DNA from: an uncultured virus (IMG/VR IMGVR_UViG_3300029305_007860)
Lineage: Duplodnaviria; Heunggongvirae; Uroviricota; Caudoviricetes
IMG/VR virus record: IMGVR_UViG_3300029305_007860
DNA length: 64,000 bases
Direction: 5' to 3' (one strand)
This document shows positions 2,624 through 63,731 of the stretch, piece after piece. The translations under genes and the position numbers were made by a program. The notes under the pieces were generated by a model. The model was not told the DNA's origin. It was given only the letters and a program-made list of their open reading frames with translations, and did not search any database. Each line of letters begins with the position of its first letter. Position 1 is the first letter of the stretch.

Positions 2624-4921
2624 ATGATAGTAGAATATGATAAAATGTCATTTTCGGAAAAAAATAATAAGATAACTTCTATAAAAAACTGGTTAAAAAA
2701 TGGTGTATCTAAGATATTAAAACCTTTGATTAAATCATATTTGGGAGATAGATTAAGTAAATTTATTAAATCTATTGAACTGGATGTTTCTGATGATTCT
2801 TATGATATATCTACGGCTAATGGGAATCATTATATAAAGGTTTCTTTATCGGAGGAAGAAGCTTGTACATTAGAAAAATCTGATTTAATGAGAGTTTTAA
2901 AATTCAAATTATATCACGAATTATCTCATGTATTATATTCAAGTGAATTAAATCCGGATACAGGAAAGGAATATTATGAAGAAGCAATAAGTAGAATTGC
3001 TGATATTTTTACAGAGATAGCAAGTTGTCAGAATAAGTTTTTTATTTCTAACCATTTAAAAAGTTTATGTTCTGATGTCATGAATTGTATAGAGGATGGA
3101 AGAATTGAAAATATTCTCTGTACAACATATGTAGGAGCCAAAAAACATAGAGATTGGTATAGGCTTACATTATGGAAAAAAAATAAAGTAAAGAATGAGT
3201 CTCCGAAAATAGGAGACCTTCGAAATGCTATATTAACTATTGCTACTATAGGTATGTTGCCTAATGGTTTTAATGTAAAATATCCTAATTCTGGAAATTT
3301 TTTCAACTTTGTTCTTGGATTATCAGGATGTATAGGACAATATGTTTGTTCAAATTCTATTAAAAGTGCTTTTCCTGTTATTGATGAGCTTTCTTATAAG
3401 ATTGCACCTTATTATGTTGATGCTTATGCTTTGTCCGAAGAAGATTACGAACATTATAAGTCAACTCAAAAGAATAGAAAATATTCGGATGAAGAACTTA
3501 ATAAAATCGCTCAAAGAGTAGCGGAAGAAATGCAGAATATGAAGGCTTCTCCTATTCCATCTGCTGATATTCCGTCTACTAATAATGGTCCAATAGTTTC
3601 TGTTCTTACCGATGATGAAATAAAGGGAGAAGAAATATCGTTAGAAACTACGCCTGATGTTATAGTTGATTTAAGGAAAAATCCTGTGTTTTCTGATAAA
3701 GAAGGAGATTCCTTAGATAAGGAGGACAACCCATATTACTATCGTCCTGAAGGGATTGATTCTAATAAAAACAACGATGGTAGCGGAGATTTAAGCCTTG
3801 ATAACGAGAAACAAATGGAATCAAAAACTGATACTTCTTTATCTAAAGAAGAAAATATGGCTGACGATGGTTTGTCACAGTCTTCTGAGTCCAACTCTTT
3901 AAATAAAAGTTCCGAAGAAGATAATAATGGGTATATATTGCCGGATTCTTCTTTTTTAGAATCTCTTATCAGTTCAAGTCTTCAGAATAGAATAGAAGAG
4001 AGTTGTGCCGAGGTTAAAAGCGATATTCAAAGAGCGAATAAAGAACAATCAGAATGGGAAATCAACCAGCATGATTCCTTTCCACTTGATAAACAAACTA
4101 TAAGCGTTTTAGCTCAAGAGTTTGGTGGGTACGAAGATGTTGATATAGTTGATTATCGAAAAAAATCTGGTGTTCGACAAGTTAAATGTCCTTCGGATAT
4201 TTTATTAAAATCTAAACGTCTTGCTCAAAAACTACAAACAATTATTTATAACAAATCTTCAAGAGACAGATATGGTTGTTATAATGGTCTTGTGAATTCG
4301 CAAGATTTGGGAAAATTTCTTACAGGGCAACCAGATTATTATAAGCAGGAAGGAATAAAGAAGAAAACGGATTTTTCTTGTTTGATTTTAAAGGATGATT
4401 CTGGTTCCATGTGTGGTGATAATGAGCATAAAGCTTTGGAAGTTCTTGCTGAATTAGAAGAAGCTTTTAAGATTATTGATTTTCCTCTTCGTATGCAAGC
4501 GTTCTCGACGAAACATGGAGAGACTATGAAAATTATTAAAAGCTGGAATGATAAAAATAAGAATGTATCTTATACATATTCCTTTGGTTCTACTTCTAAG
4601 CCTGATTGGGGGAATAATGATGCATATTCTATATCTCTTGCTACAGATATATTGGCTCAGCGTAAAGAAAAGAACAAACTGTTGATTATAGTATCAGATG
4701 GAGCTCCGTGTTGTTCTACTGAACTTGTAAAAAAAGCAGTTGAAAGAGCTAGAGGCAAGGGTATTTTTGTTATTTCTATTCTTATTGGCACAGAGAACGA
4801 GGTTACATCTAACTGGAATACCTTCACTCAAATGTACGGTCATAATCTTCTTGCCGGTTCCCTTGATAAAATGGGTGACCAGTTATTTAAATTTGTAAAG
4901 AAGTTTATTTCTTTAATTTAA
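2624..4921 (+). CDS. CobT-like vWA domain protein with N-terminal HExxH region
   Basis: HELSH and EDGRIE in N-terminus, acidic linker, MIDAS DDSGSM, VSDGAP. Confidence 0.85.
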   Translation: MIVEYDKMSFSEKNNKITSIKNWLKNGVSKILKPLIKSYLGDRLSKFIKSIELDVSDDSYDISTANGNHYIKVSLSEEEACTLEKSDLMRVLKFKLYHELSHVLYSSELNPDTGKEYYEEAISRIADIFTEIASCQNKFFISNHLKSLCSDVMNCIEDGRIENILCTTYVGAKKHRDWYRLTLWKKNKVKNESPKIGDLRNAILTIATIGMLPNGFNVKYPNSGNFFNFVLGLSGCIGQYVCSNSIKSAFPVIDELSYKIAPYYVDAYALSEEDYEHYKSTQKNRKYSDEELNKIAQRVAEEMQNMKASPIPSADIPSTNNGPIVSVLTDDEIKGEEISLETTPDVIVDLRKNPVFSDKEGDSLDKEDNPYYYRPEGIDSNKNNDGSGDLSLDNEKQMESKTDTSLSKEENMADDGLSQSSESNSLNKSSEEDNNGYILPDSSFLESLISSSLQNRIEESCAEVKSDIQRANKEQSEWEINQHDSFPLDKQTISVLAQEFGGYEDVDIVDYRKKSGVRQVKCPSDILLKSKRLAQKLQTIIYNKSSRDRYGCYNGLVNSQDLGKFLTGQPDYYKQEGIKKKTDFSCLILKDDSGSMCGDNEHKALEVLAELEEAFKIIDFPLRMQAFSTKHGETMKIIKSWNDKNKNVSYTYSFGSTSKPDWGNNDAYSISLATDILAQRKEKNKLLIIVSDGAPCCSTELVKKAVERARGKGIFVISILIGTENEVTSNWNTFTQMYGHNLLAGSLDKMGDQLFKFVKKFISLI

Positions 4922-6215: not shown

Positions 6216-6255
6216 AAAAATAACACCTTCTATTAGTATAGGAGGTGTTATTTTT
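6216..6255. terminator. Bidirectional terminator
   Basis: AAAAATAACACCTTCTA-ttagta-TAGGAGGTGTTATTTTT between convergent genes. Confidence 0.85.
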
Positions 6256-7508
6256 TATATTCTGTTTATTATTTGTTCTTCTTCTTTTATGTTTAGGTTT
6301 TTATCTTTAAAATGATATAATATATTGTTTTTTTCTATTTTAAACAAAGAAGAATAGAAAGTATAGTTATTGAGTCTCTCTTGTGTTGTGAAGTAAATGT
6401 TCTCGTGATATATTCCTGTATGTTTTAATAAAAAATATGCATCTTTTATAGATTTTACTGCTATTATATATTTTAGAGGATATCCTTTGAGAGATTCAAA
6501 TATTGTATTTATTTTAGGGAATAGTTGGACTTTTTTATAAACATACATATTTTCGTCGGTATAATCGTCAACAACAAAGTCCATTATTATTCCATTTTCT
6601 GAAACTAATTGATTCTCTTCGCTTTTAAAAATATAATTATCAAACGAAATATCGCTCATTTCTGGATAATTAAATACCCCTTTTGATACGTTAAAACCTT
6701 TTTTTTGAAATTCATTTGCGATATTAATTTTGTTATCATTTAGTTCTTTGCCTAGTATATCTAAAAGTTCGTCGCTTTTTCCTATATATATATTGAATTT
6801 ATAAGATATTTCGCTTCTTAGATTGGTATCAATATATTCCATTAGTTGATTTTTTCTGCTGGATTTTCTTGATATATTGTCTAAAATAAACAATACTTTT
6901 ATATCATAAGTCATTGAATTATAAAAACTTTCTGAATGGATGAAGTTTCTATAACTATCCCATTTTTTTATGAGTCTTGATTTTCTTTCGGTGTTCATAT
7001 CAGCTTCTAAAAAATATAAAGTATTACCTGATTTGATTAATCCGTCAGGCATTATATTGGATATAAAAGTAGAAATGTCTTTTTCATCGTAATATTCATC
7101 TAAATAATTTGGGTATTGTGAAACAAACTCCATAACAAATTGATTAAGAGAAATTTGATGTTTTACTTTACTTTCTTTTAACACAATTTTGCTGGTAGAA
7201 AGTAATTTTTTAAACTCTACACCATTCCAATCTAAAGGATTTATTCCAAAAATACCATATTTTTTTAAAAAGTTTATTCCTGATGAAGATATTATATAAT
7301 AGGAGTCTTCTTTATAGTATCCTACCTTTACTATCATTTTTTCCTGATTTTGTAAAGAAGACAGAGTGTTGAGGCAAGTTTTTATAGATAAATGTTCTCT
7401 TTCAAAAACCTGTTTATAAATTTGGTCGAGAGAAAGACATCTATAATGATAAAGTAATGATAATATAATATGTTTTTTCTTGTTTATTGTCATTTTTTCT
7501 TCCTCCAT
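6255..7508 (-). CDS. Replication-relaxation family protein (wHTH + PD-(D/E)xK-like)
   Basis: N-terminal LYHYRCLSLDQI wHTH, HQISLN, PDG..YFLEADMNTE..KWDSY. Confidence 0.75.
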   Translation of the reverse strand: MEEEKMTINKKKHIILSLLYHYRCLSLDQIYKQVFEREHLSIKTCLNTLSSLQNQEKMIVKVGYYKEDSYYIISSSGINFLKKYGIFGINPLDWNGVEFKKLLSTSKIVLKESKVKHQISLNQFVMEFVSQYPNYLDEYYDEKDISTFISNIMPDGLIKSGNTLYFLEADMNTERKSRLIKKWDSYRNFIHSESFYNSMTYDIKVLFILDNISRKSSRKNQLMEYIDTNLRSEISYKFNIYIGKSDELLDILGKELNDNKINIANEFQKKGFNVSKGVFNYPEMSDISFDNYIFKSEENQLVSENGIIMDFVVDDYTDENMYVYKKVQLFPKINTIFESLKGYPLKYIIAVKSIKDAYFLLKHTGIYHENIYFTTQERLNNYTFYSSLFKIEKNNILYHFKDKNLNIKEEEQIINRI

Positions 7509-7699: not shown

Positions 7700-9136
7700 A
7701 TGGGAGCAAAGAAAAAGGAAAACTCAAAAGTATTAAAAACCTACTTGGATAAACTTAATACAGGGGTAAATTATACTGAAATAGCAAGAAGTTCTGGGAG
7801 TACTTCTGAAAAGATAATTAAGGTTTTTGCTGGACAAAGAGTTCCGCCTTATGATTTGCTTGTTGATATTTTGGATTATTTTGATGTTGAAAATATTAAA
7901 GATGTTATTTGTGAGCTTTCTAAAAAAGATGGAGTTCTTTTGTTTAATTATTGGGACAATATTTATCCGGAAGAAGTATCTATAAAAGAACTAAGGCAAG
8001 TTATAATTGAATTAATGAAGAAAAAGAAACTCACAAGCCGGGATGTAGCAAAGAAATTTAATACCACTCAAAATTATATTTCGTCTATTGTATCAGGAAA
8101 TACAGAAATTTCATATAATTGCGTTAAGAGTTTTTCGGAAGTGTTCGATATTACTCCTGTTGAGTTGATTAATAAATTAAAAAACCGTCAACAAATATCT
8201 CTGAAACGAGATGAATTCACAAGATGCCTTGTTGAAGCTAGACAATCTCTTGATTTTACCGCAGAACATATAGCAGAGATATGCAAAATAAGTGTATATA
8301 GATATATAAAGATAGAACAGGCTGACGTAGAAATAAAAATAAAAATGTTAGCCAAAATATGTAAAGTCTTAAAATTGGATTTAGAGTATTTGGGTAAATT
8401 GGCAATAGAAGCTAGGGTATTGTTTGAGATTGAAGAATTTGAGGAAATAGTATCTGGGAAGAAAAATATAATACTTGATAGAAATCCAAATTCTAGAGAT
8501 ATAGAAGAATTTCTTTTTGAAACTTGTAGGTATAAAAGGATATCTTCTGGAGCAGTTTCCTACAATAGTAAGGCTATCGTAACGTTACTGTTTTTAATAT
8601 TATCAAATGAAATGAATAGTAGAGAAAAGTTTAAGGGAGAAATAATATATTATCTAACCCAACTGAGGTCAGGGAATGATAAGGATATATATAAGAAATT
8701 TGATTTTACAGGTATTACTAAGAGTGATGATGTTAAGTTACAAGAAATTTTTGCTAGATATAAAGATGAGTTTGGTTATTCTTTTTTGCAAATCGCTAAA
8801 TTATCTGGGTTTTCAAAGGGGTACATATCTAATAGAAATCAAAGTAAGGATTTTCTTGGTATGAACTTTATTATTAGAGTATTGCCGGCAGTCAATATAC
8901 CTTTGTCTATTGGTGTAGAGGTTATGATAAAAGAACGACTTTTTGATACTGATGTCACTGAAACGTGTGAAACCATAACTGTTAATAAACTTGTGGCATC
9001 AATGAAAAAGAATCCGATTTGGACGTATCTGGGAGAGGATGTTTCTGTAGAATCGTTCAAAGAAATATTAAAAATTATATTTGGAACAGGAGATTCGGTT
9101 GATAAATATCAGAATACAAAAGATTTCTTTGCCTGA
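7700..9136 (+). CDS. Multi-HTH XRE-family transcriptional regulator
   Basis: About four Cro/CI-like HTH units (YTEIARSSG, SRDVAKKFN..YISSIVSG, AEHIAEICKIS..YIKIEQ, LQIAKLSGFSKGYIS); upstream TTGACA-17-TAAAAT at 7604-7632. Confidence 0.8.
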   Translation: MGAKKKENSKVLKTYLDKLNTGVNYTEIARSSGSTSEKIIKVFAGQRVPPYDLLVDILDYFDVENIKDVICELSKKDGVLLFNYWDNIYPEEVSIKELRQVIIELMKKKKLTSRDVAKKFNTTQNYISSIVSGNTEISYNCVKSFSEVFDITPVELINKLKNRQQISLKRDEFTRCLVEARQSLDFTAEHIAEICKISVYRYIKIEQADVEIKIKMLAKICKVLKLDLEYLGKLAIEARVLFEIEEFEEIVSGKKNIILDRNPNSRDIEEFLFETCRYKRISSGAVSYNSKAIVTLLFLILSNEMNSREKFKGEIIYYLTQLRSGNDKDIYKKFDFTGITKSDDVKLQEIFARYKDEFGYSFLQIAKLSGFSKGYISNRNQSKDFLGMNFIIRVLPAVNIPLSIGVEVMIKERLFDTDVTETCETITVNKLVASMKKNPIWTYLGEDVSVESFKEILKIIFGTGDSVDKYQNTKDFFA

Positions 9137-9399: not shown

Positions 9400-11358
9400 A
9401 TGTTAATAGAAGAACTTGAATTATCTGAAAAAAAAACAAATCAGCTAAAAAAGAAAAAACTTAATACAGTAGAAGATATTATATATATGTTTCCTAAAAA
9501 GTATATGGACTATAGACAAGCAAAATCGGTTGATGAGGCGATATCCGGGAAAAAAACCATAATGATTTGTACAGTAATGGATGTAAAAAGAGGAAATAAA
9601 TACATAGAAGTTGTAGGAAGAGAATGTAAGTCCTTTAGAAGAGTATCTATAAAATGGTTTAGTCAACCTTATAAGTATTCTGAAGTTATTAATCTCAAAG
9701 GCATAGATGTAGCTGTAGGAGGATTATTTAACAATGATGATTATGGACCAAGTTTTGTTAATCCTGAAATATTTACTACAGATATTCCTTCTGCATTTAA
9801 AATTACTCCTATTTATTCTAAAATTGCAGGAATGAGTAACGAATATTTTTTGAATGTATTAAATAAAAGTTTGAATTTAATTGACATAAAGGATGATTTG
9901 TCTGAAAATTTCAGAAACTATTTTAATTTAATTACTGAAAGAGAAATGGTAATTAAATATCATTATCCTTGTTCGATAGATGATATTAAATTAGCAAATA
10001 AGAAAATAGTTTATAATAGATTATATAAGTTAGCGAAGAAAATGATTCTGGATGCTGGAAATGTTGAAAAAAAATCTACTTATTGCCCTAGAATCCTTAC
10101 TAATACTAATAAGTTAATAAATGAGCTCCCATACTCTTTAACGGATGACCAAAAAATTGTAGTTAGTGAGTTTGTTTCTAATGCTCAAAATGGAGAGCGT
10201 GTTAACGCATTAATTCAAGGTGATGTAGGTTGCGGAAAAACAGTATGTAGTTTTCTTATTATGTTTGCTATGGCTGATAATGGGTACCAGTCTGCATTAA
10301 TGGTTCCTACAGGAATATTAGCCAAACAACATTTTAAAGAATTACAGTTTTATGCAGAAAAATTTGGATATAAAACTGTATATTTGGGCGGAGATTTAAC
10401 TGTTAAAGAGAAAAAATTAGCTTTAAATATGATTAAATCAGGAGAAGCTACTTTTGTAGTAGGAACACATTCTATTATTTCTGATGATGTAGAATTTAAA
10501 AATTTAGGTTTGACTGTTGTTGATGAAGAACATAAATTTGGTGTTATACAAAGAGAAACATTGAAAAAAAAGGCAAATGACGGTGTTCATAGTATCTCTA
10601 TGTCTGCTACACCTATTCCTAGAAGTCTTGCTCTAACACTTTATGGAGAAGGAATGGATATATATACTATATCGACTATGCCGGGTGGAAGGGTTCCTGT
10701 AAAGACGGCTGTTGTTAATAACGATAATTCTATTTTTTCTTTTGTGCAGATGGAAATTGAAAATGGTCATCAATGTTATATTGTATGTCCATTAATTGAT
10801 AATAATGAGGATAACGAGAATGTTCCTGAATCCGTTGAAGATGTATATAAAAAAGTAACAGATTATTTTTCTATACATAATAAAAATATAAAAGCATCAA
10901 TGATAACAGGAAAAATGAAGGATAATGAAAAAAATCAAATAATTGACGATTTTTCTAAGAATAATACTCAGATTCTTATTGCGACAACTATAATAGAAGT
11001 TGGAGTTAATGTTCCAAATGCTACAGTTATTACAATAATGAACGCAGAGAGATTTGGACTTGCTGGATTACATCAGTTGCGTGGAAGAGTTGGAAGAAGT
11101 AATTTACAAAGTTATTGTATGCTTAAATCTTTAGAAAAGAATAATGATAGACTTGAAATCATGTGTATGTATACAGATGGATTTAAAATCGCTGAAGAAG
11201 ATTTAAAACTACGTGGAATTGGAGATTTAGCTGGAGTCAAACAAAGCGGAGATGATGAATCTGTCTCTCTTATGCTTAAGTATCCTCAAATATATGAAGA
11301 AATTAAAAATTATATAAAAGAAAAAGAGGTGTTTTTTAATGACAGTCTTAAACTGTAA
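9400..11358 (+). CDS. recG: ATP-dependent DNA helicase RecG
   Basis: QGDVGCGKT, DEEH, SATPIPRSL, TIIEVGVNVPNA, GLAGLHQLRGRVGR, DGFKIAEEDLKLRG. Confidence 0.95.
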   Translation: MLIEELELSEKKTNQLKKKKLNTVEDIIYMFPKKYMDYRQAKSVDEAISGKKTIMICTVMDVKRGNKYIEVVGRECKSFRRVSIKWFSQPYKYSEVINLKGIDVAVGGLFNNDDYGPSFVNPEIFTTDIPSAFKITPIYSKIAGMSNEYFLNVLNKSLNLIDIKDDLSENFRNYFNLITEREMVIKYHYPCSIDDIKLANKKIVYNRLYKLAKKMILDAGNVEKKSTYCPRILTNTNKLINELPYSLTDDQKIVVSEFVSNAQNGERVNALIQGDVGCGKTVCSFLIMFAMADNGYQSALMVPTGILAKQHFKELQFYAEKFGYKTVYLGGDLTVKEKKLALNMIKSGEATFVVGTHSIISDDVEFKNLGLTVVDEEHKFGVIQRETLKKKANDGVHSISMSATPIPRSLALTLYGEGMDIYTISTMPGGRVPVKTAVVNNDNSIFSFVQMEIENGHQCYIVCPLIDNNEDNENVPESVEDVYKKVTDYFSIHNKNIKASMITGKMKDNEKNQIIDDFSKNNTQILIATTIIEVGVNVPNATVITIMNAERFGLAGLHQLRGRVGRSNLQSYCMLKSLEKNNDRLEIMCMYTDGFKIAEEDLKLRGIGDLAGVKQSGDDESVSLMLKYPQIYEEIKNYIKEKEVFFNDSLKL

Positions 11359-11968
11359 TAATTTAAATGGTGATGTTATAACAGAAAAAACGGCAAGAGT
11401 AATGTTTTATGGAAATCCAGACAGTATTTTTAATATTTATAATAATTCTAAAGTTATAGAAAATGGTGTATTAAGTCATTTTTTTGTTGGTGGAGTAAAA
11501 GTTCCTCTTGAATATGAAAATGAGTTTTATGTTGCTCTTTGGTGGCAATTTTTTAAAGAAAATCCAGAAGTGTTAAAGACTATTTTATTATATGATGAAT
11601 TCAATGATGGATATTCAGAAGATACGATAAATTCTCCTGCCAGAATTTTTAAAATTCTAAAAATAGGTGGAATGAATGGATTAGGAACCATGTGTAAAAA
11701 ATTTCTTGTTTGGTTAAGAGAGGAAAGAAAACATATGGACTCCGATGATTTTACAGAGTTAAGAAGAAAAGCAGAGCTTTTAGTAAATGAAAATTATAAA
11801 AAATTAACTAAAGACGATATTCTTAATATAGCAAATATATCAGATTCGTCTTATTTTACTCGATTGGTATCCTTAGTTTATGATAAAAAAACGGATTGCA
11901 TTACTGATAATTTATACAATATGCAATTAAAAACAATAAAAAAAGAATTCGAAGATGGCAAAGATTAA
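11339..11968 (+). CDS. Hypothetical protein between recG and cas12f
   Basis: 209-aa ORF overlapping the recG stop, GAGGTG RBS. Confidence 0.75.
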   Translation: MTVLNCNNLNGDVITEKTARVMFYGNPDSIFNIYNNSKVIENGVLSHFFVGGVKVPLEYENEFYVALWWQFFKENPEVLKTILLYDEFNDGYSEDTINSPARIFKILKIGGMNGLGTMCKKFLVWLREERKHMDSDDFTELRRKAELLVNENYKKLTKDDILNIANISDSSYFTRLVSLVYDKKTDCITDNLYNMQLKTIKKEFEDGKD

Positions 11969-12007
11969 TAAGGTTTTTAAAACTGAAGATGATGAGGAGA
12001 GTTGAGT

Positions 12008-13228
12008 ATGGCGGTAAAAGTATTTGTAAAAAAACTTCAACTAATTCCAGTTGGAGAAAAGGATGAAAAAGATAGAGTATATGAATATATACGTACTGGT
12101 ATGTATAATCAATATATTGCTTTAAATCGTTGTATGAGTGAAGTAGGGACATTATATTATCATGTAAACAAAGATATTTCTTCCGTTGAATGGAAAGAAA
12201 AATATAGAGAAATATTTCTAATGAAAAATCCTCAGTTTGATGATATAGAGCAACCTGTAGGATTAGGTATGTTTTCGTGTGTCTTTCAGAAAGTAAAAAC
12301 TGATTTTTCTACAGCATTAAAATCTGGATTAGCTAAAGGAGAAAGACAATTACCATATTATAAACGTGACTTTCCTCTAATGGTAGGTGGTAGATTTTTG
12401 AAATTTTATAATTTTCAAGATGAAAGAGATAGTTATGCACTCAGATTTGTCAATGGTATTAATTTTAAAGTATATTTAGGGTCTCGAGGACATAAAGATT
12501 ATTCTCTTGTCGAGATGTTATCGTCTCTTTCCGAAAACACATCCAAATATAAGATTGGTCAAAGTCAAATTACAATTAAAGATGGTAAAATTTTTTTGTT
12601 CCTTACATTGAAAACAGAATATGACAACTCCTATATTCCCCAAAAAAATAAAACATTAGGCGTTGCGTTGGGATATAGTAGTCCGATTATTTGTGCTTTT
12701 AATGACTCTAATGATGTTATAGAAATTGGAGATAGTGAAGAATTTATCTCTAAACGACAATATATGCAGGAGTTCTATAAAAATTTGCAGTCGTCTATAA
12801 AATCAACTAAAGGTGGAAGAGGTAGAAAACACAAATTACAAGCTCTCGAACGGTTAAAAAACAGAGAAAAAAATTTCGCAACCCATTACAATCATGAGCT
12901 GAGCAAAAAAATAGTTGAACTTGCCGTTAAACATAATACAGAATGTATTATATTGGAAAATATTAAAAAAAATAGAATAAGTGATTTTCAAGTTTTAAGA
13001 AATTGGAGCTATTATCAATTACATGAGTTTATTAAATACAAGGCAAAAGTATATGGAATAAAGGTTTTAATAGAGGATGGTATTTATAAATGTAAATGTG
13101 GATATGAAATTAAAATAGATAATGCAGATGTTTCGATTTTTAATAATAATAAATTAATCAACTGTATAAATTGTGGAGCTGATATTGAAATAGGTGCTTG
13201 TAAAGCACATAATTTAGCAATACAATAA
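12008..13228 (+). CDS. cas12f: Cas12f/TnpB-family protein, predicted nuclease-dead
   Basis: GLAKGERQLPYYKRDFPL, KGGRGRKHKLQAL, NHELSKKIV, RNWSYYQL..IKYKA and Zn-finger Cys pairs; RuvC-I GVALG (D to A), RuvC-III IEIGACKAHNLA (no D); ATG 12008 fits RBS GAGGAG. Confidence 0.88.
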   Translation: MAVKVFVKKLQLIPVGEKDEKDRVYEYIRTGMYNQYIALNRCMSEVGTLYYHVNKDISSVEWKEKYREIFLMKNPQFDDIEQPVGLGMFSCVFQKVKTDFSTALKSGLAKGERQLPYYKRDFPLMVGGRFLKFYNFQDERDSYALRFVNGINFKVYLGSRGHKDYSLVEMLSSLSENTSKYKIGQSQITIKDGKIFLFLTLKTEYDNSYIPQKNKTLGVALGYSSPIICAFNDSNDVIEIGDSEEFISKRQYMQEFYKNLQSSIKSTKGGRGRKHKLQALERLKNREKNFATHYNHELSKKIVELAVKHNTECIILENIKKNRISDFQVLRNWSYYQLHEFIKYKAKVYGIKVLIEDGIYKCKCGYEIKIDNADVSIFNNNKLINCINCGADIEIGACKAHNLAIQ

Positions 13229-13234
13229 AATATA

Positions 13235-13354
13235 AAGGGTAGATTTGACTGCCTAAGTCTGAGGTAAGAGTCTCGTTTTTGAAGATTCTATAACACACTC
13301 GGAAAATTCTTGTTTGATGGGTTAGAACCATATAAAATATCAAGGATATCAAAC
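13235..13354 (+). ncRNA. Cas12f-type tracrRNA/scaffold fused to the first repeat
   Basis: Stem GGGTAG/CTGCCT with loop ATTTGA complementary to TCAAA at the repeat 3' end (pseudoknot); CTGAG/CTCGG and AGAGTCT/AGATTCT stems; TTCTTG..ATGG pairs with CCAT..CAAGGA of repeat 1. Confidence 0.75.
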
Positions 13355-13419
13355 CTCCTTTCTTTATACTTGTGAAAATATCAGTTTTAGAGCCATATAA
13401 AATATCATAGTTATCTCTT
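13319..13419 (+). CRISPR. Mini-CRISPR: two 36-nt repeats, one 29-nt spacer
   Basis: R1 GGGTTAGAACCATATAAAATATCAAGGATATCAAAC (13319-54), spacer CTCCTTTCTTTATACTTGTGAAAATATCA (13355-83), R2 GTTTTAGAGCCATATAAAATATCATAGTTATCTCTT (13384-419); 21/24 identity in the 5' part, 26/36 overall. Confidence 0.75.
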
Positions 13420-13430
13420 TAAGAGCATTA

Positions 13431-13461
13431 AAAAGAACACTCAATAGCGAGTGTTCTTTTT
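13431..13461 (+). terminator. Terminator closing the guide-RNA locus
   Basis: AAAAGAACACTC-aatagc-GAGTGTTCTTTTT. Confidence 0.85.
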
Positions 13462-13532
13462 CGTTATACTATTATGTAAAAATTTCTTACCCAAGCAAAG
13501 AAAAGGTAGCTTTGCAAATAAAATAAAAGGAG
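13462..13532 (+). promoter_or_regulatory. Conserved leader copy 3
   Basis: CGTTATACTATTATGTA at 13462-78; stem GCAAAG/CTTTGC, loop AAAAGGTAG at 13495-13515. Confidence 0.8.
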
Positions 13533-13543
13533 CGTGAGTATAT

Positions 13544-16390
13544 ATGGGTAAAAATGTAATATATGTAGGTGGTACAAATAATGTAAGTCGTTGTAATAAG
13601 GCAAGAAAATATGGCATAAAGGTTTCTGATATTACTATTGAGGCATTTTCAAGAACTACAGTTACAAAAGAAGCAATTAAATATTATAAGTATGATAAGG
13701 ACGTAACTTTAGAGGATACGGATTTATTTATCGACGAGAAGATGTCCGAATTATATTTTCCTAATGATTTAGTAAGGAGATTAAATCATGAAGAGGTTTT
13801 GTCTATTGTACATCGTTATCTTGAATTTGATTCAAGAAAAGCATATCCTTGTTCGTGTATTGATTTTGAGTTTGGAGGACAAACTCTTTCATATAAACCT
13901 CATTTTATTTATTATAGTGAAGAGCAGGTTTATGGGAAAGGGAAAAAAGGAATTATTAATGTCCCTGTTGTAGAAGTAGTTACTATGACTGCCGGTGCTC
14001 AAAAATTTACTACTGGTAACAAATATGGTTCTGCTAAAGATATAGTATCTTTGCATCATAATTTGGACGGATTAGGGCTTTTGATGGCTGGTAAACATTT
14101 ATTAAAAGGGAAATCTGGTATCGTAAGGTGCTGTGCTGATAGCTTAAAGACTTCTCTTGATAGTTCGGATGATTATTCTAGACCTTTTGTTGAAGCTGAT
14201 ACGGATAATTCTGGTGCTAAAAGTTCCACAAATCGTTGCTGGTTTGAAGTATTCTTTTCTGAAAATGGGAAAATCATTCCTTTGAATAAAACAGGATATT
14301 ATAAAGATTTAGAAAAGAATCAAAAAATCGTATATGATAATAGGAAACTTTTTCCGCAATATTTAGAAACTCTCAATAACTTTCTTATAGGAAAAAACAG
14401 TTGCTCTGATAGTACATGTGTGAAGTGCGATTTCTATGAGTTATGTAAGTATAATCATCAGCCTGTGAGAAAAGATGAAAATGTTATTGAAAAGAAAGAA
14501 GCGGTGGAGCCATCGTTAAACATGCAACAAAGAATGGTATGTGACTTTAAGGAAGGGATATGTTGTGTGGATGCAGGTCCGGGTTCCGGAAAAACTCAGT
14601 GCATGGCATATCGTATTTCTAAGTTATTGTGTGAAGGGACTCTTCCAGAAGAAATATTAGTAATGTCTTTTAGTAAATCAGCTGTCAAGGTTATTACTAA
14701 TCGTGTTAAATTTTTCGTTCATGATGTCTATGGGCTGTACCATATTGATACTGAAAAAATTAAGATTGCCACTTTTAATTCTCTTGGAAATGAGTTGATA
14801 GTAAAATATTACAAAGACTTGGGTTATAGTGATATTCCGGAAATGATTGATGAAGTAGAAATGTTTCATAGAGTACTATCGGCTATTGATTTTGAAAATC
14901 CATGTGAAGGATTTGATTATAAAAACTATAAAATGAAAGGATTTAGCAACAGTATAAAAGGTGGAGTAGTGTCTGAAATAACCTCTGAAATTAAGTATAT
15001 TAGAGAAAATGATATTACTAAAGAGCAATATAAGAATATTGCTACTGAAAAAGGTTATAATGAGAATCAGATTAACTATATTTGGGAAACCAATAATAGA
15101 TATACAGATATTTTATTAAAAAATAATCTTATTGATTATTCGGACCAGTGTTATCAGATATTACGTCTAATTGATTCTATAAATCCAGATGCAATTACTT
15201 CTACTTATAGATATAGTCATATTATTGTAGATGAATTTCAAGATTCTAATGACTTTCAAATGGTATTTTTGTCGGAGCTTATGAACACGGCTTGTTTTAA
15301 AAGTCTTATGGTAGTAGGCGATGATGCTCAGGCTATATATGGTTTTAGAGGAACTACACCTGAAAATATTATCAATTTTACTAAAAAGATAAATATTCCT
15401 ATAGAAGTAAAGAATTTTACTCTTGAAAGAAATTATCGTTCTACAGAAGAGATTGTATCTTTAAGTAATGAAATCTTATCTCACAATAAAAATAAGATTC
15501 AAAAAACATTAACTTCTCACATGGGAGTTTCAGGAAACAAACCGATATTTAAATCTTTTGAAAAGGATTCTATGGAAATAAGCTTTATATGTGATAATAT
15601 AGAGAAACTTATTTCTAACGGGGTAGAAAAGAACCAGATAGCTATAATTTGCTCAAAGAAAATTGCCCTAAAAAAGATATCTAAAGAACTTTCAAAAAGG
15701 GGAATCTTGTCTCAATATGATATGCCAGAACGTTTGCTGGATAATTCAAGAGTTAGAGCTGGGATAGGTTTTTGTAATTTTGTTTCAGATACAAAAGGAA
15801 CCAAAGGGCTTCTTGAATATCTTAATGAAGTATATAATGATACTTTATTTGAAAAGTTCTCGCCTTTGCGTATTCAGTCTTTGCTTGAAACAGCAAGAGA
15901 AGACTTTATAACATATTATACTCCTTTATCCTTAGAGGAACAAAAAGAGTTTGTGTTGAACGCCTTGACTCTTTTGGATGATGGAACAGATGCGGTTTAT
16001 ACAGACTTTTTAGAACGCCTTATATCCAAAACTAAGTATAATATAAATAATCTTCTTGATTATGTTAGAGATTTCTATGAGCTTGATGTAGATGCTACAG
16101 CAGAAAAGACAGGTCAATATGACGCTGTATCTATTGTTACTGCTCATTCTTCAAAGGGAAAAGAATGGGAATATGTATTTGTATCTCTTACTAATTTTGA
16201 AGATGTTCCTTGTAAAAGTGAGGAAGAAAAAGAAGAAATACGAAGATTAATATTTGTTGCATGTACAAGAGCCAAGTATGGACTTATGGTTACTACTTTA
16301 AGAAATAAGAACAAAGATGGAGATTTTATTCCTGAGAATCCTTGGTATAAAGAATTAAAAGATTATAATTCTTTTAACAACTTAGATTAA
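13544..16390 (+). CDS. UvrD/PcrA-family SF1 helicase with ~310-aa N-terminal domain
   Basis: AGPGSGKT, VDEFQD, VGDDAQAIYGFRG, LERNYRST, TAHSSKGKEW, FVACTRAK. Confidence 0.92.
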   Translation: MGKNVIYVGGTNNVSRCNKARKYGIKVSDITIEAFSRTTVTKEAIKYYKYDKDVTLEDTDLFIDEKMSELYFPNDLVRRLNHEEVLSIVHRYLEFDSRKAYPCSCIDFEFGGQTLSYKPHFIYYSEEQVYGKGKKGIINVPVVEVVTMTAGAQKFTTGNKYGSAKDIVSLHHNLDGLGLLMAGKHLLKGKSGIVRCCADSLKTSLDSSDDYSRPFVEADTDNSGAKSSTNRCWFEVFFSENGKIIPLNKTGYYKDLEKNQKIVYDNRKLFPQYLETLNNFLIGKNSCSDSTCVKCDFYELCKYNHQPVRKDENVIEKKEAVEPSLNMQQRMVCDFKEGICCVDAGPGSGKTQCMAYRISKLLCEGTLPEEILVMSFSKSAVKVITNRVKFFVHDVYGLYHIDTEKIKIATFNSLGNELIVKYYKDLGYSDIPEMIDEVEMFHRVLSAIDFENPCEGFDYKNYKMKGFSNSIKGGVVSEITSEIKYIRENDITKEQYKNIATEKGYNENQINYIWETNNRYTDILLKNNLIDYSDQCYQILRLIDSINPDAITSTYRYSHIIVDEFQDSNDFQMVFLSELMNTACFKSLMVVGDDAQAIYGFRGTTPENIINFTKKINIPIEVKNFTLERNYRSTEEIVSLSNEILSHNKNKIQKTLTSHMGVSGNKPIFKSFEKDSMEISFICDNIEKLISNGVEKNQIAIICSKKIALKKISKELSKRGILSQYDMPERLLDNSRVRAGIGFCNFVSDTKGTKGLLEYLNEVYNDTLFEKFSPLRIQSLLETAREDFITYYTPLSLEEQKEFVLNALTLLDDGTDAVYTDFLERLISKTKYNINNLLDYVRDFYELDVDATAEKTGQYDAVSIVTAHSSKGKEWEYVFVSLTNFEDVPCKSEEEKEEIRRLIFVACTRAKYGLMVTTLRNKNKDGDFIPENPWYKELKDYNSFNNLD

Positions 16391-16577: not shown

Positions 16578-17507
16578 ATGAAAGATAATATTGAGGTAAT
16601 TGGAGTTGATGTTGGGAATGGGTATACAAAGACGGTTCATTCTGATTTTGTATCTGCAAAACGTGATTGGGGAGAAACAAAACCTACTTTAACAGATAAA
16701 TTAGTATCATATAATGGAAAATATTATACAGTTGGAGGAGAACGTACTAAAACAAAAACTGACCAAAAAAAAGATGATACCTGTCTCACTCTTGCCTTAG
16801 CAGGAATCGGAGAAGAATTAAAATATAGAGGATTAAGAGAAAGTAAAATCCTTCTCTCAGAAGGGTTACCACTTGAAAGATGTATAGAGTCAAATAAGGT
16901 TTTTGACGAGAAATATTATTTGAAGGGTAATACGGTAGAGTTTGAGTATGAGGATATTCCTTATAAGATTGAGATAATTGATGTTCTTGTTAATCCTCAG
17001 TGTGTTGCAGGCATTGTAGATATGGTTGCAAATAAAGAATTACCGGATAATTGCCTTGTTATTGACTTGGGTAGTTGGACTTTGGATTTAGTTCCTATTG
17101 AAAATGGTAAGTTACAGCCAGCAAAAGCACAAAGTCTCAATATGGGAGTTATAGAGTGTATGCTTAAATGTAATGAAGGAATACGAAGAAGAACTGGTAA
17201 GGAAGTTCCTGAGTCAATGATTCAGCAAATAATGAGAGGAAATGTAGATGCTCTAATTCCACAGTATTCTTCAATCTGTGTCAATGAGATAACTGCTTAT
17301 GTAAATAATATTGCAGATGCTATAGAAGAAAATAAGTACAATACAGATGTATTGCCATGTGTGTTTATGGGCGGAGGAACATCCATTATAAAGAAATATG
17401 GAAAAGACAGATTCCCTTTAGCTATGTATATTTCTAATATTCGTGCAAATGCTATCGGTTATGAAAAATTAGGAAAGAACTATTTGAAAAAGAAAGGATT
17501 ATTATAG
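16578..17507 (+). CDS. parM: ParM/StbA actin-like segregation ATPase
   Basis: GVDVGNGYTK, GLP, VIDLGSWTLD, MGGG, ANAIGY. Confidence 0.9.
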   Translation: MKDNIEVIGVDVGNGYTKTVHSDFVSAKRDWGETKPTLTDKLVSYNGKYYTVGGERTKTKTDQKKDDTCLTLALAGIGEELKYRGLRESKILLSEGLPLERCIESNKVFDEKYYLKGNTVEFEYEDIPYKIEIIDVLVNPQCVAGIVDMVANKELPDNCLVIDLGSWTLDLVPIENGKLQPAKAQSLNMGVIECMLKCNEGIRRRTGKEVPESMIQQIMRGNVDALIPQYSSICVNEITAYVNNIADAIEENKYNTDVLPCVFMGGGTSIIKKYGKDRFPLAMYISNIRANAIGYEKLGKNYLKKKGLL

Positions 17508-45056: not shown

Positions 45057-45458
45057 TTATGTTATTTCAGTAGTCTTTGGTGGCTTAGAAGTTTCTGTGG
45101 TTGTGTTTGAACCAGTAGGCTTCTTTTCTTCTGTTGTTTTCTCGGTAGTTACTGCATCTGGCTTTTCTGTAGTACCAGTAGGTTTCTCGGTAGTCTTCTC
45201 TTCTGTTGTTGAATTATCTTCTGTAGAAGTTGTGCTATTTTCTATAACCTCTTCAGTAGAGCCGACATTTTCTGTCTTATCAGCAGAGGTTGAAGTTTCG
45301 ACTGAAGCTTCCTGAGAGCCGTTTTCGGTATTCTTATTCTTGTTCTGACAACCCATACAGATGACTGCTACTAAACAGATGAGTGAAGCGATAAGTACCA
45401 CCATTCTTGTGAATTTTTTCTTTGTTTCGTTGTTGTTCATTTTCTTCATAAAAATCAT
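45057..45458 (-). pseudogene. Truncated Thr/Glu-rich lipoprotein paralog
   Basis: Near-identical to the first ~125 aa of 62958-63731 (ICMGC lipobox) but stops within the linker. Confidence 0.7.
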
Positions 45459-45726
45459 CTCCTAACTATTATCTAAAAACATCATATACATTGTACTCCT
45501 TTGTTTAAAATAATACTACTACTTTTATTTGTATTTATTATGACATATTACAATCAATTAATCAATAAAAATAGAAAAATAATTAAATATGTTATGTTTG
45601 GGTATTTAAAAATATTCTAATTTATTCTGGATTTGTAAGACACCACGCTATAATATAGGATAATATCATATATTATCAGGCAAAAAAAATAAGAACAGAT
45701 TTTACAATCTGTTCTTGCTATATTTT

Positions 45727-51457: not shown

Positions 51458-52210
51458 TTATACTCCAAATAACTCTTTAGATAGAGCTCTGTACGAATCA
51501 GCTCCCTTACTCACAGGTTCATAATCCGTAATTCCGGTCCTCGAAAGAACCGCTTCTGCTATTTTTATATTCCTTACTATTTTTGTTTGAGCTACAGGAA
51601 CCCCATACGATATACTCAAACTTCTTATTTTCTCCTCAACAATCTCTCTCAAAAGCGTTCTTCTGGTTTCGTAATTATTGTAGACTAAAGCTTTTACATC
51701 AATATCGCTGTACTCTTTAACCCCTTTATATGTATCCAGAATTCCCTTAACAGAATCTATTGTCTTTCCTTCTGCTGTTATAGGTATTATCACTTCCTTT
51801 GAAAGCCCTAAAGCTACTATATGAAGGGTTGACGGAGTAGGACTTGTGTCTATAAACACATAATCATATTCTTTCTCTATTGAATTCATCTTCTTTTTAA
51901 GCTCTGTTTGTCTGACTCCCTTAACCACATCTGCTACAAATATAGAATTTTCATTAGCCGGAACCACCGAAAGATTAGGAGATATTTTTATTATACATTC
52001 CTTTAAATCTATTCCTTCTTCCAAAACCTCATACATTCCCGGCTTATATTCAGTACACTTTATTCCTGCATAAGAAGTTAAATTTCCTGCCTGATGGTCC
52101 CAGTCTAATATTAGTATTTTCTTCCCTTGCGAAGCTAAATACCACGCCAGATTAAAACATAAAGACGTTTTTCCGACTCCTCCCTGTTCTGCCATAAAAC
52201 TTATTACCAT
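51458..52210 (-). CDS. parA: ParA/Soj family ATPase
   Basis: EQGGVGKTS, DWDHQAGN, YDYVFIDTSP. Confidence 0.92.
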   Translation of the reverse strand: MVISFMAEQGGVGKTSLCFNLAWYLASQGKKILILDWDHQAGNLTSYAGIKCTEYKPGMYEVLEEGIDLKECIIKISPNLSVVPANENSIFVADVVKGVRQTELKKKMNSIEKEYDYVFIDTSPTPSTLHIVALGLSKEVIIPITAEGKTIDSVKGILDTYKGVKEYSDIDVKALVYNNYETRRTLLREIVEEKIRSLSISYGVPVAQTKIVRNIKIAEAVLSRTGITDYEPVSKGADSYRALSKELFGV

Positions 52211-62372: not shown

Positions 62373-62957
62373 TATAGAATACATCAATAAAAAGAATATG
62401 TCAATAATCCTTTTTTAATTAGACCGGCATATTTACGATGTTATAGTAACGCACGAATTAGGTCATTTAACACGAATACAAGCATTCGTCCAAAGAATTA
62501 AGGATATTTAAAGAGTATTATAATTAATATAGATTTACACACTTAGGAGGATACAATGGGAGTAGGTTGGCGTTGGTGATTTTGTTTTTTTGAAAGACAG
62601 GAGTTGATATTATGGGTGACCTACGAATTTAACTTTATTTTTTACTTATTCACCAATTAGAAAAACATATTTTTTCTGTCAAGGATAACCACTTCAATAC
62701 GAAGTGGTTATTTTTGTGTTACTATTTTATTATTCTCTTTTCTTTATCTCGTCTTGTCAATAAATCAGTATTACATTCAAATCCTTTAATAAAATCAACA
62801 ATATTCTTGAATACCTAAACATAACATATTTAATTATTTTTCTATTTTTATTGATTAATTGTTTGTAATATGTTATAATAAATACAAATAAAAGTAGTAG
62901 TAATATTTTAAACAAAGGAGTACAATGATTATGATGTTTTTAGATAATAGTTAGGAG

Positions 62958-63731
62958 ATGATTTTTATGAAGAAAATGAACAACAACGAAACAAAGGAAA
63001 AAGTCACAAGAATGGTGGTACTTATTGCTTCCCTTATCTGCTTAGTGGCAGTTCTCTTAATGGGTTGCCAAAACAAGAACAAGGATACTGAAAACGGCTC
63101 TCAGGAAGCTTCAATCGAAACTTCAACCTCTGCTGATAAGACAGAAAATGTCGGTTCTACTGAAGAGAATGTTTCAACAACAACTTCTGTAGCAGATAAC
63201 ACAACAGAAGAGAAGACTACCGAGAAACCTACTGGTACTACAGAAAAGCCAAACGCTTCAACAACAGAAGCTACAACCGAAGAGAAGAAGCCTAATAGTT
63301 CAAACACAACCACAGAAGCTTCTAAACCACCAAAAGCTACAGAAGAGACTACAACAGCACCAAGCACTACTGAAGCTTATGTTCCTACAACCGCTGAAGC
63401 GACTACTGAAGCGACTACTGAAGCAACCACCGAAGCAACTACTGAAGCAACCACCGAAGCAACTACTGAACACACTCACGAATGGGTTGATGTATACGAA
63501 GAAAAAACAGAATTTGATTACAGTGCAAATGTTTGTAATAATTGTGGATTTGTAGACTATCCTGTAGGATGGTCTGGAGTAGACATTATAGACCATTGTC
63601 TTATGTGTAAAGGTAAAAACGATAAGGGAGTATGGATAGGAACTTCTTACCACCTTCAAGATTTCTACAAAACAGTTTCGGTATTATCATACAAGTATTG
63701 CACAGGTTGTGATGAAATCATTTATTACTAA
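62958..63731 (+). CDS. Thr/Glu-rich lipoprotein with Cys/His-rich C-terminal domain
   Basis: LLMGC lipobox-like, TTEA 12-bp tandem repeats (~63395-63470), HTHEW, CNNC, HCLMC, CTGC. Confidence 0.8.
   Translation: MIFMKKMNNNETKEKVTRMVVLIASLICLVAVLLMGCQNKNKDTENGSQEASIETSTSADKTENVGSTEENVSTTTSVADNTTEEKTTEKPTGTTEKPNASTTEATTEEKKPNSSNTTTEASKPPKATEETTTAPSTTEAYVPTTAEATTEATTEATTEATTEATTEATTEHTHEWVDVYEEKTEFDYSANVCNNCGFVDYPVGWSGVDIIDHCLMCKGKNDKGVWIGTSYHLQDFYKTVSVLSYKYCTGCDEIIYY

Follow-up and report, generated by a model that had tools for sequence, protein, structure and literature searches.

The DNA analysed here, hereafter the window, is a stretch of 64,000 nucleotides from an uncultured virus record (IMGVR_UViG_3300029305_007860), and this report concerns a locus at positions 12,008 to 13,461 at which a gene related to those of Cas12f1 effectors is followed directly by a scaffold, a clustered regularly interspaced short palindromic repeat (CRISPR), a single spacer, a second repeat, and a terminator-like hairpin. 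The gene (P0001; 12008..13228 including the stop codon, plus strand) is intact and encodes 406 amino acids from an ATG codon that has a ribosome-binding site, GAGGAGAG, 10 nt upstream; an alternative in-frame TTG start at 12002 is less likely. Compared to the chains in the PDB by phmmer, the protein was closest to 9nzp_A, RhCas12f (E = 1.8e-56), and 8hr5_A, CnCas12f1 (E = 5.1e-55), followed by Al3Cas12f, the dead Cas12f 9n9c (E = 8e-27), and AsCas12f (E ~1e-22); 9NZP is described as RhCas12f, an active nuclease (PMC13186708). An AlphaFold2 model built from 35 sequences of the clade described below reached a mean predicted local distance difference test (pLDDT) score of 85.1, and a Foldseek search with this model gave CnCas12f1 (8hr5_A) as the top match (E = 1.5e-26), with Cas12k and Cas12m far lower. 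The protein also scored 102.4 bits against the NCBIfam guided_TnpB model, for which the cut-off is 100, because its superfamily is shared with TnpB. Together, sequence and fold establish homology to Cas12f1 and bear out a preliminary description of this DNA, made from its letters without database searches, in which an intact 406-aa Cas12f1-type open reading frame (ORF) had been proposed.

The catalytic residues were compared to those of relatives found in a database search, which returned 121 proteins at E <= 0.001, 120 of which were aligned with MAFFT. The alignment contains the match to the solved CnCas12f1 chain as P0078 (residues 1-497 of 497, 1078.8 bits), and P0118 to P0120 (401 aa, poorly alignable) were left out of the residue counts. 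The other rows form a dead group of 37, which includes the window protein, a 273-aa fragment, and a truncated 377-aa row, and a comparison set of 80. At RuvC-I, the GVDLG of active relatives reads GVALG in the window protein, with A220 (codon 12665..12667, plus strand) in place of the aspartate, and the aspartate was found in none of the 37 dead-group rows (A in 19, S in 12, V in 5, and E in 1) versus 74 of the 80 others. The RuvC-III motif NADxNAARNIA of active relatives reads EIGACKAHNLA, with G396 (codon 13193..13195, plus strand) at the aspartate position in the C-terminal alignment. When the 35 full-length rows of the group were read by eye, this position held S in 23, A in 4, R in 4, G in 3, and D in 1, the aspartate being gone in all except P0034, the most basal member. 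In the comparison set, a D.N[AGS][AS] motif was present in 76 of 80 rows, and P0103, one of the four misses, keeps the aspartate. The RuvC-II glutamate is retained as E317 within ILENI (codon 12956..12958, plus strand); it is present in 29 of the 37 dead-group rows, with D in four, Q in two, and T in one, versus 78 of the 80 others. A P.YTSQ-like motif, absent from the window protein, was found in 1 of 37 dead-group rows versus 74 of 80. Where a type V-F1 nuclease has a D-E-D triad, the window protein therefore has A220, E317, and G396, from which it is predicted to be nuclease dead. All four of the changes and retentions that the preliminary description had read from the sequence (GVALG at RuvC-I, an altered RuvC-III, the kept ILENI glutamate, and the missing P.YTS) survived alignment to the set containing CnCas12f1, with both the RuvC-I and RuvC-III aspartates missing.

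Guide RNA region downstream of the gene

The region 3' of the gene holds the following elements, all of them on the plus strand. A consensus scan found a promoter-like element (TTGTAA, 17 nt, TACAAT) at 13198..13226, within the 3' end of the ORF. Promoter-like sites in this region do not exceed shuffled sequences in number, and AT-rich -10-like words stand 5 to 8 nt before GGG in most of 13 units compared; a transcription start just before the scaffold, driven by the 13198..13226 element, is suggestive only. The scaffold itself (13237..13318, approximately 82 nt) begins after the stop codon with GGGTAGATTTGAC and resembles a trans-activating CRISPR RNA (tracrRNA), consisting of two stems, the second of which has a hairpin inserted, followed by an anti-repeat. 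An alignment of 12 homologous units from 6 loci contained two stems with 12 predicted pairs, 6 of which carry compensatory changes, and on this comparison the scaffold structure is more than chance. Covariation is used as the structural evidence because the folding z-score of the single sequence (-0.72) is not significant; no Rfam family matched the scaffold at its gathering score. In the minimum free energy fold, positions 13306-13318 pair with the middle of the adjoining repeat across a 7-nt loop. Since the scaffold runs directly into the first repeat and pairs with its middle, tracrRNA and repeat would together form a natural single guide.

The repeat (13319..13354, 36 nt) ends in ATATCAAAC, a 3' handle that resembles the ..GTCAAAC and ..ATCAAAC of relatives, and is followed by the single 29-nt spacer (13355..13383), the first 7 nt of which, CTCCTTT, are antisense to a Shine-Dalgarno sequence. 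A degenerate terminal repeat (13384..13419) is identical to the first repeat at 26 of 36 positions, with the core CCATATAAAATATCA kept and the 3' handle lost. The unit closes with a terminator-like hairpin at 13430..13461 (13-bp stem, U-run on the 3' arm, -16.1 kcal/mol by ViennaRNA), which a simple terminator scan did not list. Every part of the unit as previously sketched, from scaffold through 36-nt repeat, 29-nt spacer, and degenerate repeat to terminator, was thus found again, now with covariation in the scaffold. A tracrRNA and repeat-spacer array beside the effector are as in type V-F1 systems; cas1, cas2, and cas4, which are common but not universal in such loci, are missing here. A domain scan (E <= 0.001) of every other window ORF of >=70 aa, 49 in number, gave no matches to Cas1, Cas2, Cas4, Y1 transposase, Tns/TniQ, or sigma-70 families, in keeping with the earlier statement that no cas1, cas2, tnpA, or sigma-factor gene is adjacent. 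The Cas1, Cas2, and Cas4 families were also absent from the ORFs that flank three related loci (L001, L026, and L028). A search of 401 genomes of the family of Clostridium lentum NSJ-42, a clostridial family, did not find the repeat core, and the array was therefore not taken from a host system of any of them. Short matches to the 13388-13424 region, with 1 or 2 differences, occur on a 26.7-kb contig at a higher depth (14-18) in two of the metagenome runs (two matches in run X3 and at least one in run X5), and these samples may therefore also contain a related CRISPR array.

The dead clade, its arrays, and its genomic setting

To place the loss of the aspartates, a FastTree phylogeny was built from 114 rows, three rows shorter than 350 aa and P0118 to P0120 having been dropped. 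Thirty-six rows, the dead clade, are split from all others by a branch with Shimodaira-Hasegawa-like support of 100 and a length of 0.44, and the branches within the clade are long; the label "no Asp at RuvC-I" requires 6 changes over the whole tree. The clade comprises 36 protein clusters with intact ORFs and deep internal divergence. P0117, another row without the RuvC-I aspartate, which scores 625.8 bits against the dead Cas12f 9n9c, groups with P0110 and P0112 to P0116, outside the 36-row clade. Because the dead proteins form one clade and P0117 stands elsewhere, the inactivation is ancestral to the clade and independent of the lineage of dCas12f proteins that work with sigma-E. The preliminary description had proposed an independent, plasmid-borne exaptation of Cas12f; its independence from the sigma-E lineage and its plasmid setting stand, and the case is not an isolated one, the loss being ancestral to a clade of 36 clusters. 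Four proteins outside the dead clade, P0046, P0070, P0076, and P0103, also lack the RuvC-I aspartate (N, H, K, and N, respectively), and their scatter among active relatives suggests that the nuclease was inactivated independently on other occasions within this Cas12f1 group.

Pairwise comparison of the genes of L001, L002, and L026, which are phage contigs, gave ratios of nonsynonymous to synonymous substitution rates (dN/dS) of 0.039, 0.021, and 0.027. By this measure, selection on clade members is strongly purifying, and neutral decay of the homologues, which the preliminary description had raised as a possibility, was not what these pairs exhibited. The nearest relative of the window protein is P0002 (54-55% identity). 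Of the 92 columns that are >=90% conserved among the other clade members, the window protein matches 86, compared to a range of 75-100% for those members, and it is the shortest protein of the clade.

At the DNA level, the scaffold and repeats lie directly 3' of the gene in all five dead-clade loci examined. The scaffold overlaps the stop codon in L001, L002, and L026 and begins 11 nt after it in L028, with further scaffold copies downstream in each. Array size ranges from the 1 spacer of the window to approximately 12 in L001 and L002, which have two short units (scaffold, whole or half repeat, and guide) followed by a scaffold with approximately 12 repeats and spacers of 18-33 nt. In L026, a single short unit is accompanied by two modules of scaffold and array, with approximately 9 and 6 repeats, and L028 has three such modules with 2-4 repeats each; some spacers are common to L001, L002, and L026 and others differ. 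Two further features accompany these arrays. In L028, a tRNA-like gene (4057-4128), for which ARAGORN called an unusual anticodon loop of 4 bases, stops 4 nt short of the third scaffold, and a second tRNA-like T-arm follows the second array; these elements may serve guide RNA processing. In L001, a TnpB-like gene (12657-13967; G001:C1:29078-29665) that keeps its RuvC-I and RuvC-III aspartates stands right after the array and is followed by more array-like stretches.

A scan with the scaffold pattern returned 8 loci, 5 of them new, and L053, L054, and L055 encode a relative of the query. The L053 and L054 effectors were checked and, judging by their aspartates, are of the active type. These two loci (L053, 3996-4180; L054, minus strand, ~3985-4100), on IMG/VR contigs of 107-155 kb, have the scaffold in common with the dead clade and carry one-spacer mini-arrays, so the minimal array predates or is independent of nuclease loss. 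Other searches added no members: scans with P0003 and P0020 gave no loci beyond three known contigs, a degenerate pattern for YSYNKAKN in IMG/VR gave 5 matches, all unrelated, and neither PLSDB nor GenBank phages contained a dead-clade homologue, the best proteins there sharing 35-40% identity and carrying annotations as TnpB-family proteins or transposases.

Most clade members are on long contigs, and those examined at the DNA level, besides the window, are on phage-like ones. Three IMG/VR phage contigs that carry a clade gene are 40, 106, and 253.5 kb long, the last being 100% complete by CheckV. From these contigs, the clade would belong to phages and plasmids of (gut) clostridia. The genes next to the dead effector vary, with helicases in the window, sugar and nucleotide transferases and a Dam-like methyltransferase in L001 and L026, and PhoH and sortase in L028. 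No partner gene is conserved across these four loci, and RecG-like and UvrD-like genes, which are neighbours in the window, are not beside the dead genes of the other three. Because the neighbours vary between loci, the unit of effector, scaffold, and array is self-contained.

Proposed function, candidate target, and alternatives

Taken together, the above-described results are best explained if the locus encodes a naturally nuclease-dead type V-F1 effector (dCas12f) together with its own guide RNA and acts as a cleavage-free DNA binder or silencer, a reading that we regard as probable, though well short of assured. A transcript would run from approximately 13237 to the hairpin at 13430-13461 and would consist of a tracr-like scaffold joined in cis to one repeat, that is, a natural single-guide RNA, and then one spacer. 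The protein would bind this transcript, probably as a Cas12f-type dimer, and the complex would find double-stranded DNA with a match of ~20 nt beside a 5' protospacer-adjacent motif (PAM), which is probably C-rich (CCN or CCD), as in the nearest active relatives. An R-loop would then be held without cutting, and transcription or replication would be blocked at the site. Because multi-spacer arrays occur on phage-like contigs, the clade seems originally to have served mobile elements for CRISPR-type targeting without cleavage, and the single fixed-guide locus of the window is better seen as a minimal member of a clade with multi-spacer arrays.

The window has a G+C content of 30.3% and looks like a large conjugative plasmid, because it has genes for a relaxase, a coupling protein, ParA, and an actin-like partition protein; the earlier designation of the locus as plasmid borne is consistent with this gene content. 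By Pfam matches, the relaxase (Replic_Relax; 6255-7508), the coupling protein (TraG/VirD4-like; 53106-55286), and ParA (51458-52210) are all encoded on the minus strand, and the actin (Alp7A/ParM-like) is encoded at 16578-17507. The dcas12f gene lies on the same strand behind a co-oriented RecG-like helicase gene (9400..11358, plus strand; RecG_wedge, DEAD, and Helicase_C) and a 209-aa ORF from the ORF list (11339..11968, plus strand), whose sole Pfam match, to NADAR-DarT1, is weak and under the cut-off (E = 0.0086). Downstream is a UvrD-like helicase gene (13544..16390, plus strand; UvrD-helicase and UvrD_C) encoding 948 aa with a long N-terminal extension. An HTH_3 protein is encoded at 7700-9136, 2.9 kb upstream of dcas12f and beyond recG, and the window also encodes a 1834-aa adhesin with TQ-ester domains. 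The stretch from 9400 to 31861 is unusually rich in DNA repair and replication genes (RecG-like, UvrD-like, RecJ, RecD2-like, and a 944-aa topoisomerase), with DnaE further on. An inverted repeat of 368 nt, 93% complementary (45249-45616 versus 62800-63167), brackets a 17-kb segment with the coupling protein, ParA, and DnaE genes, which may be an invertible or duplicated module; each arm holds a leader-like sequence with an 11/12 match to the guide seed. The dead protein is recorded on 2 contigs, of up to 117,307 bases, with one member sequence in its cluster, and identical fragments (0 differences) were found in four animal faeces metagenome DNA runs, at low depth and without variants. No RNA run was among the 10 runs listed for the sequence, a blank that weighs neither way. 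No near-identical DNA to the region was found in PLSDB or GenBank phages, and the plasmid relaxase was absent from 381 scored genomes of the clostridial family.

Because the start of the spacer is complementary to a Shine-Dalgarno sequence, a target site at a gene leader was predicted. The 401 genomes were scanned with 24 nt at <=3 mismatches, and one candidate target was found in one clostridial genome (G111:C7:87210-87233), where spacer positions 1-20 are matched 20/20 and the 5' flank is TTACCA. The gene for a 239-aa GntR/UTRA regulator has its ATG 11 nt downstream of this site and is followed by a glycoside hydrolase family 4 (GH4) glycosidase gene; the site covers the ribosome-binding site of this gntR-GH4 sugar operon, in an ordinary chromosomal neighbourhood. 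The number of exact 20-mers expected in such a scan is 0.006-0.03 (Markov order 0-4), to which the CC flank adds a factor of ~0.022. CnCas12f1 is said, in the title of a paper, to have C-rich PAM specificity. The PAM of enRhCas12f1, the engineered form of RhCas12f1, is given as 5'-CCD, with CCA best, at 9 of 12 sites (PMC10090079), and the 5'-CCA that flanks the candidate target is thus the flank that enRhCas12f1 prefers. The candidate (L145 8195-8245) stands between the arms of a perfect 8-bp inverted repeat, ATTACCAC and GTGGTAAT, which could be the operator of GntR or could form a hairpin in the leader with the ribosome-binding site inside it. On the plasmid, the complex would then act as an RNA-guided repressor of the host gntR-GH4 operon, the sole candidate target found. 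We consider it possible, and clearly short of probable, that the G111 site is the true target. The fuller proposal, that a conjugative plasmid hard-wires dCas12f-based CRISPR interference (CRISPRi) against the host gntR-GH4 leader via 5'-CCA, using a member of a clade independent of dCas12f-sigma-E, TldR, and Cas12m, is on balance unlikely.

A number of results weigh against the proposed function or this target. The genome scan gave 6 matches versus 12 for a reversed control, with no excess at <=3 mismatches, and the G111 match is limited to 20 nt, with agreement at 4 of the 9 remaining spacer positions. At the position of Arg117, which in RhCas12f contacts the PAM (PMC13186708), the window protein has Gly, and for this reason its PAM may differ. 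G111 contains no homologue of the dead protein and no plasmid-like DNA beyond weak DnaE similarity, and a search of 40 relatives of this genome did not turn up the target leader. At the candidate operon, pairing of the guide would be to the coding strand, an orientation in which dCas12a is the poorer block to elongation. Within the protein, the first Cys pair of the Zn ribbon is CxC, compared to CxxC in the clade, and the near-invariant RuvC-III Asn is replaced by Cys (N398C). Finally, protospacers of spacers from the related arrays were not found in the searches made: the L026 array had no clear self-target in three phage records and none in GenBank phages, two L001 spacers matched only their own arrays in IMG/VR, and the L028 arrays had no significant match in their own metagenome-assembled genome or in 301 genomes of its family, the latter being a weak test with 2 candidates scored per genome.

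The same cleavage-free machine could instead be directed against a competing mobile element or against the rest of this plasmid, with the G111 match due to chance, which we find doubtful but worth serious consideration. An essential gene or a transfer gene of another plasmid or phage would then be silenced, in the manner of Cas12m and type IV systems carried by plasmids. The clade is confined to mobile elements (three phage contigs and the plasmid-like window), its approximately 12 diverse spacers, differing between related phages, are typical of conflict systems, and the lack of an excess over the control at <=3 mismatches fits a chance match; in addition, V-F systems are described as enriched on plasmids, and V-M and type IV systems as blocking transcription in inter-plasmid competition (PMC11656645). 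Opposed to this are a 20/20 match with a CCA flank, which is improbable by chance, an array reduced to one spacer and a decayed terminal repeat, which would be a poor tool in an arms race, and the failure to find a protospacer in any of the mobile-element data searched. An exact 18-mer scan of IMG/VR and JGI metagenomes returned 17 and 65 loci, respectively, with at most 24/29 matched, which is chance level, and no plasmid copy; matches in GenBank phages were likewise at chance level; and the window contains no second spacer site at <=3 mismatches of 20, its best seed matches being 11/12 at 45496 and 62909. A role as an anti-CRISPR decoy, in which the dead protein and its tracr/repeat RNA would sequester host Cas12f CRISPR RNAs (crRNAs) or poison dimers and so shield the plasmid or phage, seems to us distinctly improbable. 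It has been proposed that a phage Cas9 with an inactive RuvC domain and its own tracrRNA captures crRNAs, and single repeats are described as RNA anti-CRISPRs (PMC11656645); Cas12f is dimeric (PMC12255294), which makes poisoning possible, and active relatives with the same scaffold exist on other phage contigs (L053 and L054). A decoy, however, has no need of the many different spacers in dead-clade arrays, the repeat core was not found in the 401 genomes of the clostridial family, and the PAM-side and guide-side architecture is under strong purifying selection.

That the window copy is a decaying relic of a once-larger system is improbable, although somewhat less so than a decoy. Its one remaining spacer, its terminal repeat with 26 of 36 positions identical, its CxC Zn ribbon, N398C, and minimal length of 406 aa, and the single member sequence of its protein cluster, on 2 contigs, could all be read in this way. 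Against decay, the ORF is intact, and its share of kept clade-conserved columns (86 of 92) falls inside the span seen for other divergent members; both covarying scaffold stems are kept, the RNA is framed by a promoter-like element and a terminator, and the identical sequence recurs in four animal faeces metagenome runs. It is very improbable that the protein retains nuclease activity through an active site rebuilt from E317 and recruited acidic residues. Such an arrangement could draw on the kept RuvC-II Glu and on the Asp that many clade members have four residues past the lost one (GYDKC), and TnpB/Cas12 branches with relocated, possibly active, catalytic residues have been described (PMC10691335). 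The GYDKC Asp, however, is not conserved: the window protein has Ser at that position, and other members have N, A, or E. The RuvC-II Glu is variable too (D, Q, or T, as counted above), and no acidic residue is invariant in or beside the three RuvC motifs among the 35 aligned clade members, which makes a relocated active site unlikely. The RuvC-III Asp kept by the basal P0034 suggests stepwise loss rather than relocation. We give equally little credence to a guide-directed recruiter of the neighbouring RecG-like or UvrD-like helicases, or of a transposase, in place of a simple roadblock. The gene does lie between the two helicase genes on the same strand, type IV-A systems use the DinG helicase (PMC11656645), and Cas12k and dCas12f-sigma-E are precedents for recruitment, but these neighbours are not conserved (L001, L026, and L028 differ), and no Tns/TniQ or sigma factor genes are among the 49 other window ORFs.

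Significance and comparison with known systems

Naturally dead RNA-guided proteins are known from Cas12k, Cas12m, TldR, and dCas12f-sigma-E, and their study is a young field. To these, the clade described here, apparently undescribed, adds an independent nuclease loss within Cas12f1, in Firmicutes, that is phage and plasmid borne, keeps true CRISPR repeats, and has no partner protein. It was not described in the text passages of the literature searched, and members may already be included in a published tree. The guide architectures across the clade include multi-spacer arrays, half-repeat single-guide units, and the tracrRNA-fused one-spacer unit of the window. CRISPR RNAs have been proposed to revert to single guide RNAs (PMC10691335), and these architectures would be stages of that route. 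If the candidate target is real, a plasmid would silence a host operon by natural CRISPRi, and host metabolism would be reprogrammed. Judged from their sequences, the 406- to 445-aa proteins are apparent natural DNA binders with a compact native single guide and possibly a C-rich PAM and are thus candidate miniature scaffolds for CRISPRi or base editing.

RhCas12f1 (9NZP) and CnCas12f1 (8HR5) are the closest sequence relatives of the window protein, the latter also being the best by fold. At 415 and 497 aa, respectively, versus 406 aa here, all three are compact proteins of Clostridia, and the tracrRNA-plus-repeat guide architecture is common to them and the window locus. Unlike these nucleases, the window protein is without the RuvC-I and RuvC-III aspartates and P.YTSQ, and its tracrRNA is joined in cis to the first repeat, with one spacer.

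The dCas12f-sigma-E activators of Bacteroidota (9N9C) are also dead Cas12f1 descendants with guide RNAs just downstream, scaffold and guide being fused, and bind DNA without cleavage (PMC13472631). Unlike in that lineage, which is described as C-terminally truncated (PMC13472631), the C-terminus and Zn ribbon are kept here. The two also differ in that the window gene has no sigma factor or helix-turn-helix (HTH) partner beside it, where an extracytoplasmic function sigma factor gene (rpoE with a C-terminal extension) and an HTH gene would be expected of a member, and in that the present clade has a separate tree position, resides in mobile elements of Firmicutes hosts, and retains true CRISPR repeats. 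The same source describes a CRISPR-linked, sigma-E-free dCas12f cluster, with a Chitinophagaceae example aimed at the promoter of a resistance-nodulation-division (RND) efflux operon; there, too, a dead Cas12f stands by arrays with a covarying guide RNA region upstream, and repression of chromosomal operons is proposed (PMC13472631). That cluster is described from Bacteroidota and was compared to ours by text, so that overlap with the present clade is possible. In the text of four supplementary files of that paper, the strings Clostridi, Lachnospir, Firmicutes, Bacillota, and Eubacterium occur 0 times (PMC13472631).

TldR proteins, too, are small and have a dead RuvC, their guide is encoded immediately 3' of the gene, and they are RNA-guided repressors of host genes, some of them on prophages. 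They are reported to derive from transposon TnpB and to be linked to fliC, oppF, or flagellin/csrA, the last two in a clostridial group (bioRxiv 10.1101/2023.11.30.569447). The window protein, unlike TldR, comes from the CRISPR-associated Cas12f1 group with CRISPR repeats kept, and flagellin, Opp, and CsrA families are absent from the window ORFs. Nor does the locus resemble an IS200/IS605 TnpB (OMEGA) element, since the window has no Y1 transposase and the downstream RNA carries CRISPR repeats and a spacer, or a type V-K CRISPR-associated transposon, the tnsB, tnsC, and tniQ families being absent from the 49 ORFs and the NCBIfam V_Cas12k score being 25.3 bits against a cut-off of 150. Classical mini-arrays copy the host repeat and depend on host Cas proteins, unlike the window element, which brings its own dead effector and tracrRNA. 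The mini-arrays of viruses and plasmids are otherwise similar in having one or two spacers on a mobile element (PMC11656645).

Cas12m (type V-M) is of another Cas12 lineage: its chains ranked 43-48 in the Foldseek search, with template modelling (TM) scores of 0.34-0.50, and none was among the PDB sequence matches at E <= 10. It is larger than the window protein and is not known to use a tracrRNA. Nevertheless, Cas12m is described as enriched on plasmids and some prophages and as interfering by binding and transcription block without cutting (PMC11013384, PMC11656645), and by this likeness it would be the best functional analogy for the window system.

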